This document shows positions 1 through 6,863 of a stretch of 6,863 bases of DNA, piece after piece. Within the stretch, counting starts at the first letter, position 1. Each line of letters opens with the position of its first letter. The position numbers and the translations under genes were made by a program. A model generated the notes under the pieces. It saw only the letters and a list, made by a program, of their open reading frames with translations. It was not told where the DNA came from and ran no database searches. The stretch lies in the IMG/VR virus record IMGVR_UViG_2740892230_000020. One strand, written 5' to 3'. This stretch comes from a virus (taxonomy: Duplodnaviria; Heunggongvirae; Uroviricota; Caudoviricetes).

Positions 1-168
1 ATTGCACTTCAGTTCGGTGGTGGTAATGAGGAGACGAATCTCTGGACGCTCTGTACCGAATGCCATCGACAAAAGTCTGCTCGTGAAGCGGCGGGTGGTA
101 TGCCGGACCCGACGCTGCCGGAGGTGTCCGGAGGTAGTGGCAGAGCGGACGACATCATCGGACTGTAA
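1..168 (+). CDS. HNH endonuclease, C-terminal fragment (5' end cut by window start); diverged second copy of the gene at 6604..6863
   Basis: Frame-1 translation from position 1 reads IALQFGGGNEETNLWTLCTECHRQKSAREAAGGMPDPTLPEVSGGSGRADDIIGL, then TAA at 166..168. It contains the C-terminal C-x2-C-H zinc knuckle of HNH nucleases. The nucleotide sequence is the near-identical reverse complement of 6604..6771. Absent from the ORF track because it is under 60 codons with no start codon in the window. Confidence 0.65.
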   Translation: MALQFGGGNEETNLWTLCTECHRQKSAREAAGGMPDPTLPEVSGGSGRADDIIGL

Positions 169-248
169 CCCGACCCGGGGGGGGGTATCATCCGGCGTAA
201 AAAAAGATCGCTTTGGACACCGCCCCCCCTCTCACGCAGAGAAAAAAT
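1..248. repeat. Left arm of an inverted repeat (HNH 3' end plus 80-bp flank); partner at 6527..6771
   Basis: By manual alignment, 1..248 is the reverse complement of 6527..6771 at roughly 94% identity. Differences: 8 clustered substitutions at 69..94, about 4 substitutions in the flank, and a 2-nt homopolymer length difference. Confidence 0.8.
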
Positions 249-258
249 NNNNNNNNNN
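249..258. other. Assembly/scaffold gap (10 N)
   Basis: Run of ten n characters. Sequence on either side is unrelated in content: inverted HNH flank to the left, 3' end of a minus-strand ORF to the right. Confidence 0.98.
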
Positions 259-520
259 GCAGTACATCCGGATCATAATCACGACCATCACGCGGTACCG
301 GAATGGTCCCCACAGCGTCATCCACCATCGCCTGCAGAACCGGATGTACCTCATCCACCGTCACATGCTTCTGTAATACCGCCGACAGGGAAGCCAGTTT
401 CTCTTCAAACGCTTGTGCCTGCGCGGCCATCTTCCCCTCAAATGTGCGCTGTAAATCCGCCAGCACCGTGGAGAATTCTTCGCCCAGTGCACGAATAATG
501 GACAGTTCCCGTTCCGTCAT
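259..520 (-). CDS. Hypothetical phage head-module protein, translationally coupled to the portal gene; 3' end lost in the N gap
   Basis: ATG at 520..518 overlaps the portal stop (517..519) in an ATGA arrangement. The open frame runs to the gap and encodes MTERELSIIRALGEEFSTVLADLQRTFEGKMAAQAQAFEEKLASLSAVLQKHVTVDEVHPVLQAMVDDAVGTIPVPRDGRDYDPDVL, which looks helical and acidic. The ORF-track extension to 188 crosses the N run and reads through the inverted HNH flank, so it is not trustworthy. I recognise no family. Confidence 0.45.
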
Positions 521-1881
521 TTTCTCAGTATCCCCCTGAACATCGCTTTCACTGCATCATGCTCTGTTTCACTGATTGCCTTATTACCGTCAGATGCGCC
601 GTCAGGCAGTTGTGCTGAAACTGTTTTCCCGGCCGACGCGAACGGGTCCTCACGGGCATCACGACGGGACAGCGCCTCCAGACTGTAGTTCTGCTGCTGA
701 AGATACAGTGCATCACCGCCGGCAAGGGGCGGCAGGTTCTCACGTTTACGGGCCTCATTGGGCGTGAGAAGCGTATTTTTCACCGATTCACCCAGTGTTT
801 TCATGCGCCGTTCGCTGTCCATTCTCAGCAGCGTGGTGACGTCAAACTCCGTGCTCTCGTTTTCCCCCGTTTCCAGCGCCTCATCCAGTAACAGCTCAAT
901 GGACTCAATCAGCGTCTGCAGACACTGGGAATAATACTGCTGCTCCAGCGCCTCCACGTTGTCACTGGAAGGCGGGTGGCCAACGCCAATCTTGTAGGCC
1001 GGGACACGGAACACCGAACAGACAATTTCAGCCGTCATTTTCAGTTGTTCCACCGTCTGCGCATCCACCGGTGAAAACGTCGTGGGGCTGTATTTTGCCC
1101 CGTTGCTCAGTATGGCCGTCTTCCCGGCATTTTCGCCCGTATATCCGCTGTCCCAGTTCCCCTTCAGTTTTTTCGCGTTTTCTTCCGTAATACTGCCGGG
1201 GACCTCAATCACGCCTGATGGTCGCCCGCCATTTCTGAAAAAATACGTCGAATTTGCCTGAATATGATGCCCCTGCATGGCCGCCAGCCCGGCGGCATAC
1301 ACCGGCGGCAGCCCCACAAGCGGATGAAAAAAACAGTTAAACCGGTCGTGGATCACTTCCCGGGCAGGCACCGTCACCGCCTCCGTGATCCCGCAGTTCC
1401 GGTCCGGCGTGATGCGATAGAACACCTCGCCGTCATCCGCCACCAGAGGTTCAACCCGGTTCCAGTCCAGAATACGCAGTTCTTTGATCTGCCCCCGGGA
1501 GTTACGGATTTTCAGCACCACCGTATTGCCGTGACGCAGTTTGGCGTTCAGCCACAGTTCAAAAAACTGGATACGATTCTGCTGTGCATTGGGACGACGA
1601 CAGAGACGGGCAATATCCCCCTGCCGTTTTTCACGGCGGATCCCCTGTGTATCGGTCTGCATCAGGCGCAGTCGCATTTTGGCGATATCCTGGGATATCA
1701 GCGAAATGCAAGAAAACACCGCGTGAAAGGACAAAACGGTTTCCGGATCGGCTTTCACACCCTGCTGCCAGGCACCGGCAAAAGGCTCAGCCACCGCCTG
1801 AAACAGGGACCGCCAGCCCACTTCTCTTACGTCACGTCCTGATTTCTGGTTTTTTCGGGTTCGCCGCAAAAGGTTCCACAT
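517..1881 (-). CDS. Phage portal protein (HK97-type portal family)
   Basis: 454-aa ORF. The region YFFRNGGRPSGVIEVPGSITEENAKKLKGNWDSGYTGENAGKTAILSNGAKYSPTTFSPVDAQTVEQLKMTAEIVCSVFRVPAYKIG matches the conserved core I recall for HK97-type portals (FF-NG-PSGVL, W...Y.G..NAGK, EI...F.VP). GGAG lies 8 nt upstream of the ATG at 1881. The start is uncertain: an in-frame GTG at codon 21 is possible if the 1827..2048 ORF is real. Confidence 0.85.
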   Translation of the reverse strand: MWNLLRRTRKNQKSGRDVREVGWRSLFQAVAEPFAGAWQQGVKADPETVLSFHAVFSCISLISQDIAKMRLRLMQTDTQGIRREKRQGDIARLCRRPNAQQNRIQFFELWLNAKLRHGNTVVLKIRNSRGQIKELRILDWNRVEPLVADDGEVFYRITPDRNCGITEAVTVPAREVIHDRFNCFFHPLVGLPPVYAAGLAAMQGHHIQANSTYFFRNGGRPSGVIEVPGSITEENAKKLKGNWDSGYTGENAGKTAILSNGAKYSPTTFSPVDAQTVEQLKMTAEIVCSVFRVPAYKIGVGHPPSSDNVEALEQQYYSQCLQTLIESIELLLDEALETGENESTEFDVTTLLRMDSERRMKTLGESVKNTLLTPNEARKRENLPPLAGGDALYLQQQNYSLEALSRRDAREDPFASAGKTVSAQLPDGASDGNKAISETEHDAVKAMFRGILRK

Positions 1882-2048
1882 TCGCCATGCTCCGCATCAC
1901 GTTTCTTTTTCTGACCTGCCGGACGTCGCGCTGTGATGTACTCCGCCTTCCCCAGGCGAACCAGCACCTCCGCACACGGCTGTGCCACATCACGGATATC
2001 CCCGGCCCGGGCATCATGCGTGCCCTGCAGATACTGGATTTTTGCCAT
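1827..2048 (-). CDS. Possible small ORF (73 aa) between capsid and portal genes; doubtful
   Basis: ATG-initiated ORF lying mostly in the 211-bp gap between the capsid stop (2093) and portal start (1881), with protein-like composition (MAKIQYLQGTHDARAGDIRDVAQPCAEVLVRLGKAEYITARRPAGQKKKRDAEHGE...). It has no Shine-Dalgarno within 5-10 nt of the ATG and overlaps the annotated portal start by 55 nt in another frame. Confidence 0.2.
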   Translation of the reverse strand: MAKIQYLQGTHDARAGDIRDVAQPCAEVLVRLGKAEYITARRPAGQKKKRDAEHGECGTFCGEPEKTRNQDVT

Positions 2049-2092
2049 CTGTTACTGCGGGAAGCTCGCGCCTCCCGCCCTCCTCATCAGAC

Positions 2093-4030
2093 TCAGCCAC
2101 CGGACGCAGTTCCGTAGTTCACACCGGTGATCACCGCCACTGCCGCGGTACGGCGACGACGCCAGTTGATCCAGCGCTCCGCACGGATGGCCACGCTGCC
2201 GGTCTGAAACATGGAGACCAGTTCCACCGGTGACGGTGTGCTGCTGTCGCTGGTCGGTTCAGACTGCATCTCCAGTGACGCTTCACGGGACATATCCACC
2301 GCCACACCGCCGTCATCAGCCAGATAAATATCCGGTGCATTCACCAGTACCAGCTGGTCACCCACATACTGGGAGACAATCACCGGAAGCCCCTGGAAGG
2401 TCCCGCCCAGCAAGGTCATGTCCGGATATTCCTTCTGCCCCAGCGCATTTTTACGCATGGACAGCGCCAGGGCATTCGTGCTGGACATCAGCCAGACCGC
2501 ACCGGTGGGCTGCAGATTTGCCGTCACAAACTGGCCAAACGCGGCCTCGGCATCCGCATCCGGGTTACCGGTTGATGCCGTGCCCTTCACATCATGGGTG
2601 ATGGACGCCGGGGAGACATCCGCCACCGCCGCTTTTTTCGGGTCCACAAAGTCTGTGTCCAGACGCGCCACCACCGCTTCTGCCAGCGCATTACGGACCA
2701 GCGCATCAGCTGCCGGACTGGAAAAACGGATCAGCTCTTCCGTCAGTACCGCAATGGCCGACACCTTCGCATGACTGAAGGTGATGGATTCAAAATCAAA
2801 CTTCGTCAGGGGTCTGGCCTTACCCTCCCCCACCCAGCCGGCAGCACCACCGGACACCTGGGCATGCACGCGGATATTGAACGGCACCTGACGAAGTGCA
2901 GGGATCCCGCCCTGACCAAATCGCCCGATAATGGTCTGCGGACGCAGGTAATCAATAAAGTCCTGCGCATATTCCTGGTATTCAGACAGGCTGCCTGCCC
3001 ACTGCGGGTCCGTGGTGGTCCCTGCCCCCACCGCCGATTTCAGGACATGATGCAGACGGCTGTCATCCGGATACTGACGACGGGCCACTTCCAGGGCTTC
3101 AGAGCGGACACCTTTAGCCGCGGCCAGTGATTTGGCAAAGCGGGCGAAACCAATCCCCTTCTCCAGTTTCTGCTCAACACGGATCACCGGCGCTGAAGCC
3201 ACCGTGGCCACATTCCCGTTACCGGCCTGTTTCACCGGCTGTGCCGTGGCGGCCTTACTGGTTTCCAGTTCACGCAGACGCTTCAGGTGCGCATCCACCT
3301 GACGGATTTCCGCTGCGGTGTTGTCGTAGTGCTCTTCCTCTTCCACATCCAGTGTGCGGCCTTCCTCTGCGGCTTTGTTCATGATCTCCTCAAGGGAGGC
3401 TGCCAGCGCCGCACGCTTGTTTTCAAAACTTTTAATCTGTTCACCAGTATTCATTGCTGACTTTTCCTTATGAAAAGAGGTTATTGACTGTGCCGAAGCG
3501 CCGGCAGAAGATGCGATTTTCACCACCGGTTTCCGGTTGCCGGACGCGGCAGAAAACGGGCGGTCGAAATATTTAATGGTCCGGATGGTGCATTCCGCAT
3601 TCGCGGGCACGGTGACGGCAGACACCTCCATCAGCTCCCAGCGCAGAAAATGCAGTCCGCCTCCGTCCAGATAAGTGTATTCATGGGGCCGGAAGCCCAC
3701 AGAAAGCCCCCTGACCAGCCCGGTCTTAATGGCAGCCCAGGCCTCATCCAGCCGGGCTGCCATCTGGGAGGGCATCCCCGGCTCCGGCTTCACCAGCATT
3801 GCCGTGATTTCCAGCCCTTCCCTGACCCGACGCACCGTACACTGGCCTACAGGGCGGGAATGGTCATGCTGCCAGAGAAACGGGATCGTACTGCCAAACT
3901 CCGCCCCCTCCGGCTCCAGGATGTCACCATCCCGATCCGGAGAAGGCGTTGACGCAATCCCGGTGATCACCCGTTCATCCTCGCTGAAGGATTTCACCGT
4001 CAGCAGGGAACAGGCCCGTTTAAGAGTCAC
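2093..4030 (-). CDS. Prohead protease / scaffold-like coiled coil / major capsid protein fusion (HK97 family)
   Basis: 645-aa ORF. The N-terminal ~165 aa carry HK97-type prohead protease motifs (ITGIASTPSPDRDGDILEPEGAEF; His in WQHDHS; Ser in VRGLSVGFRP, about 50 residues after the His). Residues ~190-280 are a charged helical segment (EQIKSFENKRAALAASLEEIMNKAAEEGRTLDVEEEE...LKRLRELE). The C-terminal ~350 aa resemble the HK97-fold capsid body. The GTG start at 4030 is preceded by a perfect AGGAGG (4036..4041 on +) with a 5-nt spacer. Confidence 0.85.
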   Translation of the reverse strand: MTLKRACSLLTVKSFSEDERVITGIASTPSPDRDGDILEPEGAEFGSTIPFLWQHDHSRPVGQCTVRRVREGLEITAMLVKPEPGMPSQMAARLDEAWAAIKTGLVRGLSVGFRPHEYTYLDGGGLHFLRWELMEVSAVTVPANAECTIRTIKYFDRPFSAASGNRKPVVKIASSAGASAQSITSFHKEKSAMNTGEQIKSFENKRAALAASLEEIMNKAAEEGRTLDVEEEEHYDNTAAEIRQVDAHLKRLRELETSKAATAQPVKQAGNGNVATVASAPVIRVEQKLEKGIGFARFAKSLAAAKGVRSEALEVARRQYPDDSRLHHVLKSAVGAGTTTDPQWAGSLSEYQEYAQDFIDYLRPQTIIGRFGQGGIPALRQVPFNIRVHAQVSGGAAGWVGEGKARPLTKFDFESITFSHAKVSAIAVLTEELIRFSSPAADALVRNALAEAVVARLDTDFVDPKKAAVADVSPASITHDVKGTASTGNPDADAEAAFGQFVTANLQPTGAVWLMSSTNALALSMRKNALGQKEYPDMTLLGGTFQGLPVIVSQYVGDQLVLVNAPDIYLADDGGVAVDMSREASLEMQSEPTSDSSTPSPVELVSMFQTGSVAIRAERWINWRRRRTAAVAVITGVNYGTASGG

Positions 4031-4042
4031 ATCAGCCTCCTG

Positions 4043-4068
4043 AAAATAAAAAAACCGCCGCAGCGGTT
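4043..4068 (-). terminator. Intrinsic-terminator-like hairpin plus U-tract between terL and the capsid gene
   Basis: Minus-strand RNA reads GAACCGCUGCGGCGGUUUUUUUAUUUUC. The stem AACCGC/GCGGUU closes a 4-nt loop and is followed by U7-A-U4, which runs directly into the AGGAGG ribosome-binding site of the capsid gene. The plus strand has no equivalent T-tract, so the element is orientation-specific. Confidence 0.45.
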
Positions 4069-4093
4069 CATGATGGTTACAGGGTGAGCAGGG

Positions 4094-5755
4094 TTATATG
4101 AAAAAAACCTCATACGCTTTCTTTTTCGGTTCCGGATTCAGGGACATCAGGGACACCGCATTGAAGAGCGCCATCAGCGGGTCAATTTTTCCCCGTCCGC
4201 TGGCCTGTTTGGTGATAAGAATGGCGTTACCTTTAGGCTCCACCCGGGCATTGCCAACGCACCAGGCCATCAGTGGCTGACCACCATGCACCAGTACTCC
4301 CTCAGCCAGTTTGCGCTCGGTGGTTTTTATGGCCCCGCCCAGCTTCCAGCCCTGGCTTATCCCCACAACAATTCCGTCGGGGATCCCGGCTTCCGCCAGT
4401 GAATCCAGAATCTGCCCCACACCTGACGGGTCAATACCGATATGCTCCAGTAACTCAGCCTCATGAATACGACGCACATACTCCGCCACTTCCGCCGTGT
4501 CATCCCCGACCCGACGGACAATCGTCATGTCTCCACAGGCCACAAAATCCTGAAAACGGGATGCCTCACTCTTCCGTCTGACCACCGCGGTTTCATGCGC
4601 CCAGGCATGGCCCCAGCCCAGCCATTCGCGGGTTTCCCTGTCACGGCCAATCACGTACATTCCCAGCAGATCATCCAGGCCCCCGCCGTCAATCCCCACC
4701 GTCACCACATCAGCGCGCTGCAGGATATCGTCCAGGCTGACGCGCCTGCCCTGCTGCTCCCAGAAATCCGCACCCGCCCAGCGGTCAGAACGCAGGGCAA
4801 GACCAATTTCCACATTGGCATGTTTTGACATGAAGCCACGAAATGCTTCCTCACCAGCCTCCCGGGCTTTACGGTACTCCCGGTACAGAAAAGCCTCATC
4901 CACCGAATAACCGAGATTCGGGTTAACCATGGCGAGGTTTTCCATCAGCAGGTGAGCCCCGCTTTCCACCATTTCAGGAGGATGCTCAAAAATCACCGGC
5001 AGAAAGTGCGGATCATGAATTTTGCCGTCACGGACATCCCGGGCATACTGCAGTTTCTGTCTGAACACCCCGGCGGGCGGTTCATTCGACTGGGTGGTCG
5101 TATACACCACAAACCCTTCCGGACGGGAGGCAAGCCCGCCGATGGCTTCACGTAGCATGTCTTCCGCCTTGTACTGCTTGCCAAACAGCCACAGTTCATC
5201 AATCAGTGTCCCCACGGACTTGATACCGGACACCGTATTCGGATCGGCTGCCACCACCTTCAGGGTGGTGTCCGTCACCCGATGGGTGATGGTCCGGATA
5301 TGTGTCTGCACCTGACAGAGGTCATCCAGATCATCGTCCCGTCGTACCATATCCCTGGCAGGGTTGAAGGCGTTAGCCGCCACCTCCACGGTCGGGGCCA
5401 GAATGGTGTAGCCCGCCGCCTGCCGCCAGTTCAGTAACAGCGCCGTCATCATGATCCCCGCAGCCAGCGTGGACTTACTGTTTTTCTTGGGGATAAGGAT
5501 AAACACTTCCTTGATATGGCGAACACCGGTCTGCGCATCGTAGGAGCCAAACAGGGCCGCCACCAGGTCAAACACCCACGGTGCACAGGACTCCCCGAAT
5601 GTCGGGCTACCCGGTGCATCCACAATTCGCAGTTGTTTAAAAATCGCCAGTGCATGTGCAGCCTGGTCCGGATAAATCGGAGCCGGAATAATCGACAGCC
5701 CCTTTTTCAGGCGCTCTGCCCAGTCCGGGCAGGCCGTGCTCCACACAGGTATCAT
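4094..5755 (-). CDS. terL: Terminase large subunit (ATPase/nuclease)
   Basis: 553-aa ORF. Walker-A-like motif in FILIPKKNSKSTLAAGIMMTALL, C-terminal nuclease-domain-like VTVGIDGGGLDDLLGMYVIGRD, and length and position typical of HK97-type large terminases. The ATG at 5755 overlaps the terS stop (ATGA) and is preceded by GAGGG with a 6-nt spacer. Confidence 0.9.
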   Translation of the reverse strand: MIPVWSTACPDWAERLKKGLSIIPAPIYPDQAAHALAIFKQLRIVDAPGSPTFGESCAPWVFDLVAALFGSYDAQTGVRHIKEVFILIPKKNSKSTLAAGIMMTALLLNWRQAAGYTILAPTVEVAANAFNPARDMVRRDDDLDDLCQVQTHIRTITHRVTDTTLKVVAADPNTVSGIKSVGTLIDELWLFGKQYKAEDMLREAIGGLASRPEGFVVYTTTQSNEPPAGVFRQKLQYARDVRDGKIHDPHFLPVIFEHPPEMVESGAHLLMENLAMVNPNLGYSVDEAFLYREYRKAREAGEEAFRGFMSKHANVEIGLALRSDRWAGADFWEQQGRRVSLDDILQRADVVTVGIDGGGLDDLLGMYVIGRDRETREWLGWGHAWAHETAVVRRKSEASRFQDFVACGDMTIVRRVGDDTAEVAEYVRRIHEAELLEHIGIDPSGVGQILDSLAEAGIPDGIVVGISQGWKLGGAIKTTERKLAEGVLVHGGQPLMAWCVGNARVEPKGNAILITKQASGRGKIDPLMALFNAVSLMSLNPEPKKKAYEVFFI

Positions 5756-6315
5756 CCGTTGCCCTCATTATCATTATTCACCACCAGGCGGGGTGGTGGT
5801 GGCACCGCAAAACGGTTAGCCGCTTTTTTCGCCGCGTCACCTTTTGCCGATTTTTTACCGGCATCCCCTTTTTTATGGTGCGTGAACTGCGCCAGCTTAT
5901 AAGCCGCATCCAGCGCCAGCCTGGGGTCGGTATTAATGTTCTCCACCAGAAGACGCCCCATCGCTTTCACCGGATCGGGAAGACCATCCTCCATATATTC
6001 AATACCAGGAGACATCACCGCGGACGGTGGCATCTCCGGATTGTTTTCGTCCGGCTGTGGTATTGCAGCCGCCTCACGGCGACGGGGTTTATCCTCCTGC
6101 TCTGATTTTTTCTGCCGGTAAACAGGAACCTCATCCACCTCCACCGTCTCGCATTGTTTACGGGCTATAAACGCAAGCACCTCCGGATCTTTTGCCAGCT
6201 GCGAGCCTTTAACCCTGGCGGTCTTCGCCGAATAACCAGCGGCAATGGCTGACGCTGTTTTGTTTTTCCCGGACATGAGCGCCAGCGCAAATTTTCGTTT
6301 TTGCGTTGTCAGCAC
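5752..6315 (-). CDS. terS: Terminase small subunit
   Basis: 187-aa ORF. The N-terminus LTTQKRKFALALMSGKNKTASAIAAGYSAKTARVKGSQLAKDPEVLAFI fits the helix-turn-helix signature of small terminases (LT-KQ..F...Y...N.T.AA..AGYS.KTA...G..LL..P.V), followed by a Lys-rich C-terminus. GTG start at 6315 is preceded by GGGAGGAGG. It sits immediately upstream of, and is translationally coupled to, terL. Confidence 0.75.
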   Translation of the reverse strand: MLTTQKRKFALALMSGKNKTASAIAAGYSAKTARVKGSQLAKDPEVLAFIARKQCETVEVDEVPVYRQKKSEQEDKPRRREAAAIPQPDENNPEMPPSAVMSPGIEYMEDGLPDPVKAMGRLLVENINTDPRLALDAAYKLAQFTHHKKGDAGKKSAKGDAAKKAANRFAVPPPPRLVVNNDNEGNG

Positions 6316-6385
6316 AGCCTCCTCCCGGGTCCAGAACGCACTCAGCCGGGTATGGTTCAGCCCATTTTTCCCGGCGTCTCATGCC

Positions 6386-6513
6386 GCAAATGTTAACTGC
6401 TGCCTGGTTAACATTTGCTGAAAAAGCCAGTTAACATTTTTTCCGCACAACAAACTGAATAATAAAGATAAAAACCGCAAAAATGCCCGGACAGCCAGTT
6501 AACATGTTAACTG
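6386..6513. promoter_or_regulatory. Array of GTTAAC-core palindromic sites (candidate terS-binding cosB-like sites or operator array)
   Basis: Five GTTAAC hexamers at 6392, 6407, 6430, 6498 and 6506, all within extended half-sites C(A/T)GTTAACAT. 6386..6418 is a 12-bp inverted repeat (gcaaatgttaac / gttaacatttgc) around a 9-bp spacer. 6496..6513 is a perfect 18-bp palindrome (cagttaacatgttaactg). An A/T-rich tract (6448..6485) lies between the sites. Confidence 0.5.
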
Positions 6514-6526
6514 CCCTGAAACGGGA

Positions 6527-6771
6527 ATTTTTTCTCTGCGTGAGAGGGGGGGCGGTGTCCGGAGCGATCGTTTTTTACGCCGAATGATACCCCCCCGGTC
6601 GGGTTACAGTCCGATGATGTCGTCCGCTCTGCCACTACCTCCGGACACCTCCGGCAGCGTCGGGTCCGGCATACCACTCGCCGTTTCACTGACTGACTTC
6701 TGGCGATGGCATTCGGTACAGAGCGTCCAGAGATTCGTCTCCTCATTACCACCACCGAACTGAAGTGCAAT
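6527..6771. repeat. Right arm of the inverted repeat (partner of 1..248)
   Basis: See left arm. Homology presumably continues beyond 6771 into the rest of HNH, but the left copy is cut by the window start. Confidence 0.8.
6546..6596. other. G7...C7 homopolymer dyad immediately 3' of HNH (candidate cos nicking region)
   Basis: A G7 run (6546..6552) and a C7 run (6590..6596) flank a ~37-bp spacer, directly downstream of the HNH stop at 6604. The same arrangement recurs in the inverted copy at 177..229 with a 9-nt run. Its position between HNH and terS is where cos lies in HK97-like phages. Confidence 0.3.
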
Positions 6772-6863
6772 GCGGTGATCGAGTTCACTGTCACAAAGGT
6801 CAACCACACGCCCACAGAGACAGCACTGTCCGGCATCCCTCAGCCAGATACGACGCTTGAGGG
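6604..6863 (-). CDS. HNH endonuclease (5' partial; start beyond window end)
   Basis: The minus-strand frame is open from the window edge: LKRRIWLRDAGQCCLCGRVVDLCDSELDHRIALQFGGGNEETNLWTLCTECHRQKSVSETASGMPDPTLPEVSGGSGRADDIIGL, with stop at 6604. It shows the full HNH zinc-finger signature (C-x2-C...DH...N...C-x2-C-H). The ORF-track entry 6604..6807 is the same frame started at an internal GTG. Confidence 0.85.
   Translation of the reverse strand, partial: LKRRIWLRDAGQCCLCGRVVDLCDSELDHRIALQFGGGNEETNLWTLCTECHRQKSVSETASGMPDPTLPEVSGGSGRADDIIGL

Follow-up and report, generated by a model that had tools for sequence, protein, structure and literature searches.

The inverted repeat that brackets the head-packaging module in this stretch of DNA is very probably an assembly artefact, produced when an orphan contig from a second, nearly identical prophage was joined to the wrong end of the module. 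The window, by which we mean the whole stretch of 6863 nucleotides that was analysed, is byte-identical to the 6863-bp NCBI WGS record CCPR01000146.1, which belongs to the draft E. coli assembly GCA_000752855.1. Since the window is an entire WGS scaffold, it begins and ends where the scaffold does, at bases 1 and 6863; between these lie, in order, a contig of 248 bp, the 10 Ns and a contig of 6605 bp.

The first-pass annotation, which was made from the letters of the window, had described positions 1 to 248 as the reverse complement of 6527 to 6771 at about 94% identity and had noted that this arm stops exactly at the 10-N gap. Both descriptions were reproduced. When 1–248 was aligned with 6771–6527 in reverse complement, MAFFT and BLAST gave an identity of 93.95%, with 12 mismatches and one 3-base gap (arm-to-arm BLAST E=2.2e-108), and the only Ns in the window are those at 249–258, which the left arm abuts exactly. 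A repeat finder reported two pairs of arms, 1–182/6590–6771 (95% complementary) and 179–248/6527–6596 (94%), which are offset from each other by the 3-base homopolymer indel and form a single repeat overall. The 15 differing columns are clustered at arm positions 69–94, in the C-terminal coding part of the HNH gene, at 176–178, where the C/G homopolymer indel lies, and at 192–214 in the intergenic DNA, while the first 68 and the last 34 bases of the orphan (the latter being 215–248) are identical to the right copy. The HNH frame is open in both arms to the same stop (...CHRQKSAREAAGGMPDPTLPEVSGGSGRADDIIGL versus ...CHRQKSVSETASGMPDPT...IIGL), and the arms differ by an in-frame block of substitutions, KSAREAAGG versus KSVSETASG. 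Because both arms remain in frame to a shared stop, the divergence between them is allelic and does not represent sequencing noise.

The genes of the 6605-bp contig lie entirely on the minus strand in the order HNH endonuclease, cos-type intergenic region, TerS, TerL, protease-capsid, 73-aa ORF, portal and repeat protein (Table 1). The HNH endonuclease is annotated at 121 aa in closed genomes. PF01844 matches both of the fragments in the scaffold, scoring 29.3 bits for the right fragment and 23.3 bits for the left, whose match covers the second half of the motif only, compared with 27 bits for the full-length protein of locus L001 and a cut-off of 21.4. An HNH gene directly precedes terS and terL, across the intergenic region, in the right copy and wherever the left allele occurs in its native context; in the scaffold, the left copy has no adjoining terS or terL. 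The label "HNH-cos" that had been given to the two arms is thus secure in its first half, which Pfam and the adjacent terminase genes support, while its second half is an assignment by gene order only.

Table 1. Coordinates of the features of the scaffold, with the evidence for each.
Feature	Position	Strand	Evidence
Orphan 248-bp contig, allele "B": HNH 3' end and cos-side intergenic flank	1..248	+	Repeat alignment, closed genomes
Partial HNH endonuclease CDS, allele B, last 55 codons and stop, begins at scaffold edge	1..168	+	Frame-0 translation IALQFGGGNEETNLWTLCTECHRQKSAREAAGG...IIGL*; PF01844
cos-side intergenic flank, allele B: C3G9 homopolymer junction, A7 run, C7 run	169..248	+	
10-N scaffold gap; placeholder, no measured distance	249..258	.	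Record's only Ns
First ~87 codons of the 407-aa gene downstream of portal, cut at tandem-repeat start	259..520	-	L001 comparison, translation
Portal protein, 454 aa	517..1881	-	Pfam PF04860 E=2.9e-80; RefSeq annotation
Hypothetical 73-aa protein encoded between the capsid and portal genes	1827..2048	-	ORF list; annotated in closed genomes; called in independent contigs
Prohead protease-major capsid fusion, 645 aa	2093..4030	-	Pfam PF04586 and PF05065
Terminase large subunit, 553 aa	4094..5755	-	Pfam PF03354 and PF20441
Terminase small subunit, 187 aa	5752..6315	-	Pfam PF03592
Five GTTAAC palindromes, terS-to-arm interval, outside both arms	6392..6511	.	Motif count versus shuffles
Right arm, allele "A": in-place HNH 3' end and cos-side flank, 211 bp from terS start	6527..6771	-	
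Partial HNH endonuclease CDS, allele A, last 85 codons and stop, runs off right scaffold end	6604..6863	-	PF01844; gene call in L079

Positions 259–6863 belong to a lambdoid E. coli prophage, often present in several copies per genome, and make up its head-packaging module. Matches covering more than 80% of this sequence occur in 1,248 complete E. coli records, with identities reaching 99.8%; a matching genome has a median of 2 module places, the maximum being 9, and the left arm has 2,929 places in 1,252 genomes, with up to 7 in a single genome. In closed genomes the module is flanked by head-tail connector and tail genes on one side and by lysis genes on the other, and these flanks contain no second HNH gene and no recombinase. 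Among 93–94 phage records, including those of Stx2-converting phage 1717, BP-4795, Stx1a- and Stx2c-converting prophages and PPompW, the HNH-cos-terS region is 89–98% identical to that of the scaffold. The order HNH, TerS, TerL, protease-capsid, small ORF and portal is likewise that of Stx-converting and other lambdoid prophages with HK97-like heads, in which several near-identical copies per genome are common, as they are for the module of the scaffold. The scaffold differs from these lambdoid phage records only in its extra, inverted 248-bp piece at the portal end, which is found in none of them. In content, then, the sequence is an ordinary and already known lambdoid prophage head module, with nothing new in it.

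Copies of the module that reside in the same closed genome can be nearly indistinguishable. The copies compared, L001, L004, L076 and L077, show 0–1 differences from the window over 259–6560, and almost all of their differences fall at 6561–6703, the variable core of the arm, with a few further to the right. Different HNH-cos alleles in co-resident copies were seen directly in the closed genomes of 13E0780 and 2013C-3264.

The left arm is a genuine allele of this junction. HNH-cos junctions of closed genomes match it at up to 99.2% identity, contig L083 differs from it by one G in a homopolymer, and the differences between the arms at 176–178, 192 and 213/214 are standing polymorphisms among 70 loci. 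Wherever this left allele is seen in its native setting, it is followed co-linearly by terS, terL, capsid and portal on the same strand. The right arm is a mosaic, in which 6527–6640 corresponds exactly to L078, L074 and L027, and 6641–6863 corresponds exactly to L077 and L004; taken as a whole, the right-arm allele has a best closed-genome match of 97.2%. This mosaic is either a natural recombinant or a consensus that switched between paralogues within the shared interval at about 6637–6666. Both arms are therefore built from alleles seen elsewhere, in keeping with the earlier argument that their divergence speaks against a simple collapsed repeat. A fold-back or chimeric amplification artefact was also considered as a source of the repeat and was rejected, as the arms differ by 6% and the differences are allele-like and in frame.

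The junction of the C run and the G run in the arms (174–185; 6587–6597) is variable in homopolymer length among loci, with two to four Cs and seven to eleven Gs. The C3G9 combination of the left arm is absent from all other loci examined, the nearest allele having G8, and it is possibly a homopolymer sequencing error. The predicted folding of this segment is no better than that of shuffled sequences (z=-0.97), and no significant hairpin was found in it. The same junction (window ~6593; arm ~182/183) is the point at which ISEc20, of the IS110 family, is inserted in strain 2013C-3264 (L004 14336–15785) and in several PPompW records, suggesting that it is a preferred target of this element.

Phage HK97 has an HNH protein, GP74, that helps terminase to cleave cos (PMC9410871). 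As in HK97, a small HNH gene is found here immediately upstream of the intergenic region that precedes terS; the likeness to gp74 is one of arrangement, and by gene order this is an HK97-type packaging region, whose HNH protein may take part in cos cleavage. None of the 93–94 matching phage records ends within the region, these records being given in prophage coordinates or opened arbitrarily, and the partial matches to phage records in the region are due to ISEc20 insertions. The hexamer GTTAAC occurs six times in the window, where 0.73 occurrences are expected, and five of the six sites lie within 120 bp (6392–6511); six sites were reached in none of 200 shuffles. The clustered palindromes are candidate recognition elements for TerS.

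The two sequences that flank the gap both stop at positions where other assemblies also break. Base 259 corresponds to position 6001 of L001, in which positions 5505–6037 form a tandem array with a period of 162 bp, 3.3 copies and 98% matches, an array that belongs to the gene following portal. Compared with the copy 162 bp upstream, the first base to differ is 259; to its left, 268 bases of the closed genome repeat exactly, and in the source strain base 259 would be preceded by ...CACCGCCTGCT of the 162-bp repeat. In Logan, five independent contigs terminate at the position of L001 5971, exactly 30 bases farther on than the equivalent of base 259. Logan assemblies are built with k=31, and 30 bases would then equal k-1.

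The other contig has a recurrent boundary as well. The exact 55-aa peptide that starts at base 1 was found in 161 index blocks of other assemblies, and in 100 of the 161 it is confined to contigs shorter than 2 kb, indicating that unrelated assemblies break at the same base and often leave short orphans. Loci differ, with A or C, at the site just upstream of the base-1 equivalent (window 6772). The last position at which the arms differ is 214, and the orphan runs on for 34 bases beyond it to base 248, a distance that fits an allele-specific graph node ending where it merges into shared sequence and that may reflect the k-mer size. The longer contigs that carry the edge peptide (6531–6767 bp, and 16 kb in L078) run from the arm through terS, terL, capsid and portal and stop at the tandem repeat. 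The right scaffold end at 6863 is not demonstrably a recurrent breakpoint, its edge peptide being unique to this record.

Runs of N are also present in other public scaffolds of the module, at L078 6576–6625 (50 Ns) and L080 1865–1964 (100 Ns). The run in L078 is at the same tandem-repeat position, and there the scaffolder spanned the repeat while keeping the proper co-linear order. Gaps of 10 Ns are written by Velvet and SPAdes as a minimum or artificial value. In the literature, 10-N spacers are found both as assembler gaps and as the product of arbitrary concatenation. With its ends at repeat boundaries, its recurrent breakpoints, its orphan allele contig and its N placeholder, the scaffold shares the features of short-read repeat breaks and misjoins in multi-prophage E. 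coli, and we identified no differences from them.

The gene in which the larger contig stops (L001 5039–6262, minus strand) encodes a 407-aa protein that contains 3.3 near-perfect repeats of 54 aa (…DGRDYDPEVLKQAVNDAVANIPVPADGKSITPDDVRPMLEQMVKEAVSHIPAPR…) and that matches no Pfam family above the cut-off. It is because of the corresponding 162-bp DNA repeat that short-read assemblies break here. The portal and repeat-protein ORFs overlap by ATGA (window 517–520). In four closed loci RefSeq treats the pair (L001 5039–7623) as one "frameshifted portal", and at L002 12893–15472 it annotates an intact fusion of 859 aa; the split form and the fused form are both in circulation.

A second possibility raised by the first-pass annotation was that the head module is truly bracketed by inverted HNH-cos repeats. 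In such an architecture a diverged HNH-cos junction would lie inverted beside a portal-side gene truncated within its repeats, and 245-bp inverted repeats would flank the module, which could then invert or be exchanged by homologous recombination. We regard this as extremely improbable. The join is present in the record as deposited, and the divergence of the arms means that they are not a trivial self-overlap. However, a search for it elsewhere gave no support. The query 1–2500, which spans the arm, the gap and the portal side, matched 1,259 records among 5,426 complete E. coli genomes, and the best 25 places listed all begin at base 259, none of them joining the arm. A place in which arm and portal side occur within ~1.75 kb (1750 bases) on the same strand at more than about 90% identity would outrank those listed, and no such place is ranked. 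The end of the arm followed by the start of the larger contig, with a spacer of 0–30 bases, is absent from viral, metagenome and genome contig collections; with a fixed spacer of 10 bases the junction has no match in viral contigs, and a scan of genome contigs with a 41-mer of the left arm did not find it. The junction pattern was validated on the window, where N in the pattern matches N in the sequence.

The organization of the module in other genomes also argues against a real inverted bracket. Each of 86 independent loci (776 kb in all) has a single arm, which in one case is split by ISEc20, and a second or inverted arm was seen in none of the 86. All 77 arm/terS pairs have the canonical relative orientation. 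Of 33 pairs of arm and portal-side end, none has both on one strand, and across the 86 loci the two never come closer together than 6245 bp. In all loci examined the end of the arm continues uninterrupted into the terS side, lying 26–27 bases from the sequence equivalent to window position 6500. Moreover, the proposed architecture would interrupt a head-region gene partway through its repeats and would leave a cos site without an adjoining terminase. Both sequences beside the gap end at repeat boundaries common to unrelated assemblies. A true new junction, being unique sequence, would have been assembled through, whereas both flanks of the Ns stop where the graph enters repeated sequence.

Invertible DNA segments bracketed by inverted repeats, such as the G segment of Mu, the C segment of P1 and the Hin/Gin/Cin systems, are well known, and the scaffold resembles them in that the record shows a segment flanked by inverted repeats. 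The likeness is superficial. Unlike those systems, the scaffold has no recombinase gene and its repeat is separated from the segment by an N gap, and its arms consist of an incidental gene end and intergenic DNA as opposed to recombination sites. No invertase or recombinase is encoded among the large ORFs of the window, and closed genomes have tail and lysis genes next to the module. Linkage of the arm and the segment on one molecule is interrupted by the Ns in the record and is seen in no other genome or locus, and the 77 arm/terS pairs show one relative orientation only.

It is also conceivable that the gap hides an IS element or other repeat between 248 and 259, and that an IS-mediated inversion or deletion placed a foreign HNH-cos remnant beside a truncated head gene. 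IS elements do remodel these prophages, as shown by ISEc20 in the arms of L004 and PPompW and by an IS3 element that truncates the capsid gene in L003, and an IS would likewise break a short-read assembly. The contig ends, however, are away from the known IS insertion points, one being at the boundary of a tandem repeat (259) and the other 34 bases past the last difference between the arms (248), and in all loci examined the arm passes uninterrupted into the terS side. The 1750-base joining span used above is long enough to cover an IS of 1.2–1.4 kb, and no place of this kind was among the ranked matches. An event of this sort therefore carries hardly any probability.

That the contig ends coincide with breakpoints, and that the junction is missing from the other genomes, loci and contig collections searched, instead strongly favours the first of the two alternatives in the first-pass annotation, a scaffolding artefact, with a short contig from a paralogous HNH-cos junction joined in arbitrary orientation. 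By analogy with related closed genomes, we infer that the source strain would have at least two copies of the module, identical over about 6.3 kb and differing almost only at the HNH 3' end and cos flank. From such a genome a short-read assembler would build the module once, with one of the alleles, and the other allele would be left as an orphan of about 250 bp with shared sequence on either side. A scaffolder, or a later contig-joining step, would then have put the orphan on the opposite, portal-side end in the wrong orientation, that end being itself an assembly break at the 162-bp tandem repeat. The module would then seem to be bracketed by an inverted repeat. In the genome itself, the 248-bp piece would be followed co-linearly by its own copy of terS, terL, capsid and portal, continuing as TCCCGTTTCAGGGCAG... 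(the reverse complement of 6526 downward).

The software step that made the join is likewise conjectural. Forward-reverse read-pair logic should place the orphan at the HNH end as a direct repeat, whereas the placement observed is inverted and at the portal end. The failure of this logic to predict the particular misplacement is a point in favour of a real join, though a spurious link, reference-guided ordering or plain concatenation could each have caused the misjoin.

The join may be artefactual and the 248-bp contig nevertheless derive from a second strain or a contaminant, in which case it would be a true allele and not a paralogue on the same chromosome. Both arms are common population alleles, and the record itself cannot tell a paralogue from an allele. 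Against this, carriage of several copies is common, as the numbers of arm and module places per genome given above show, and different alleles do occur together in 13E0780 and 2013C-3264, so that a paralogue requires no additional assumption. We therefore consider a second strain to be a very unlikely source, and a paralogous copy of the module in the same genome is preferred.

This probable misjoin can be recognised without reads, by virtue of contig ends that lie on repeat boundaries recurring in unrelated assemblies. The case is a caution that draft scaffolds of E. coli strains with multiple prophages carry placeholder joins that can mimic inverted-repeat architectures. For the biology of Shiga-toxigenic E. 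coli, it illustrates what is already well known, namely that near-identical head modules reside together in one genome and that the variation among them is concentrated at the HNH 3' end and the cos flank.
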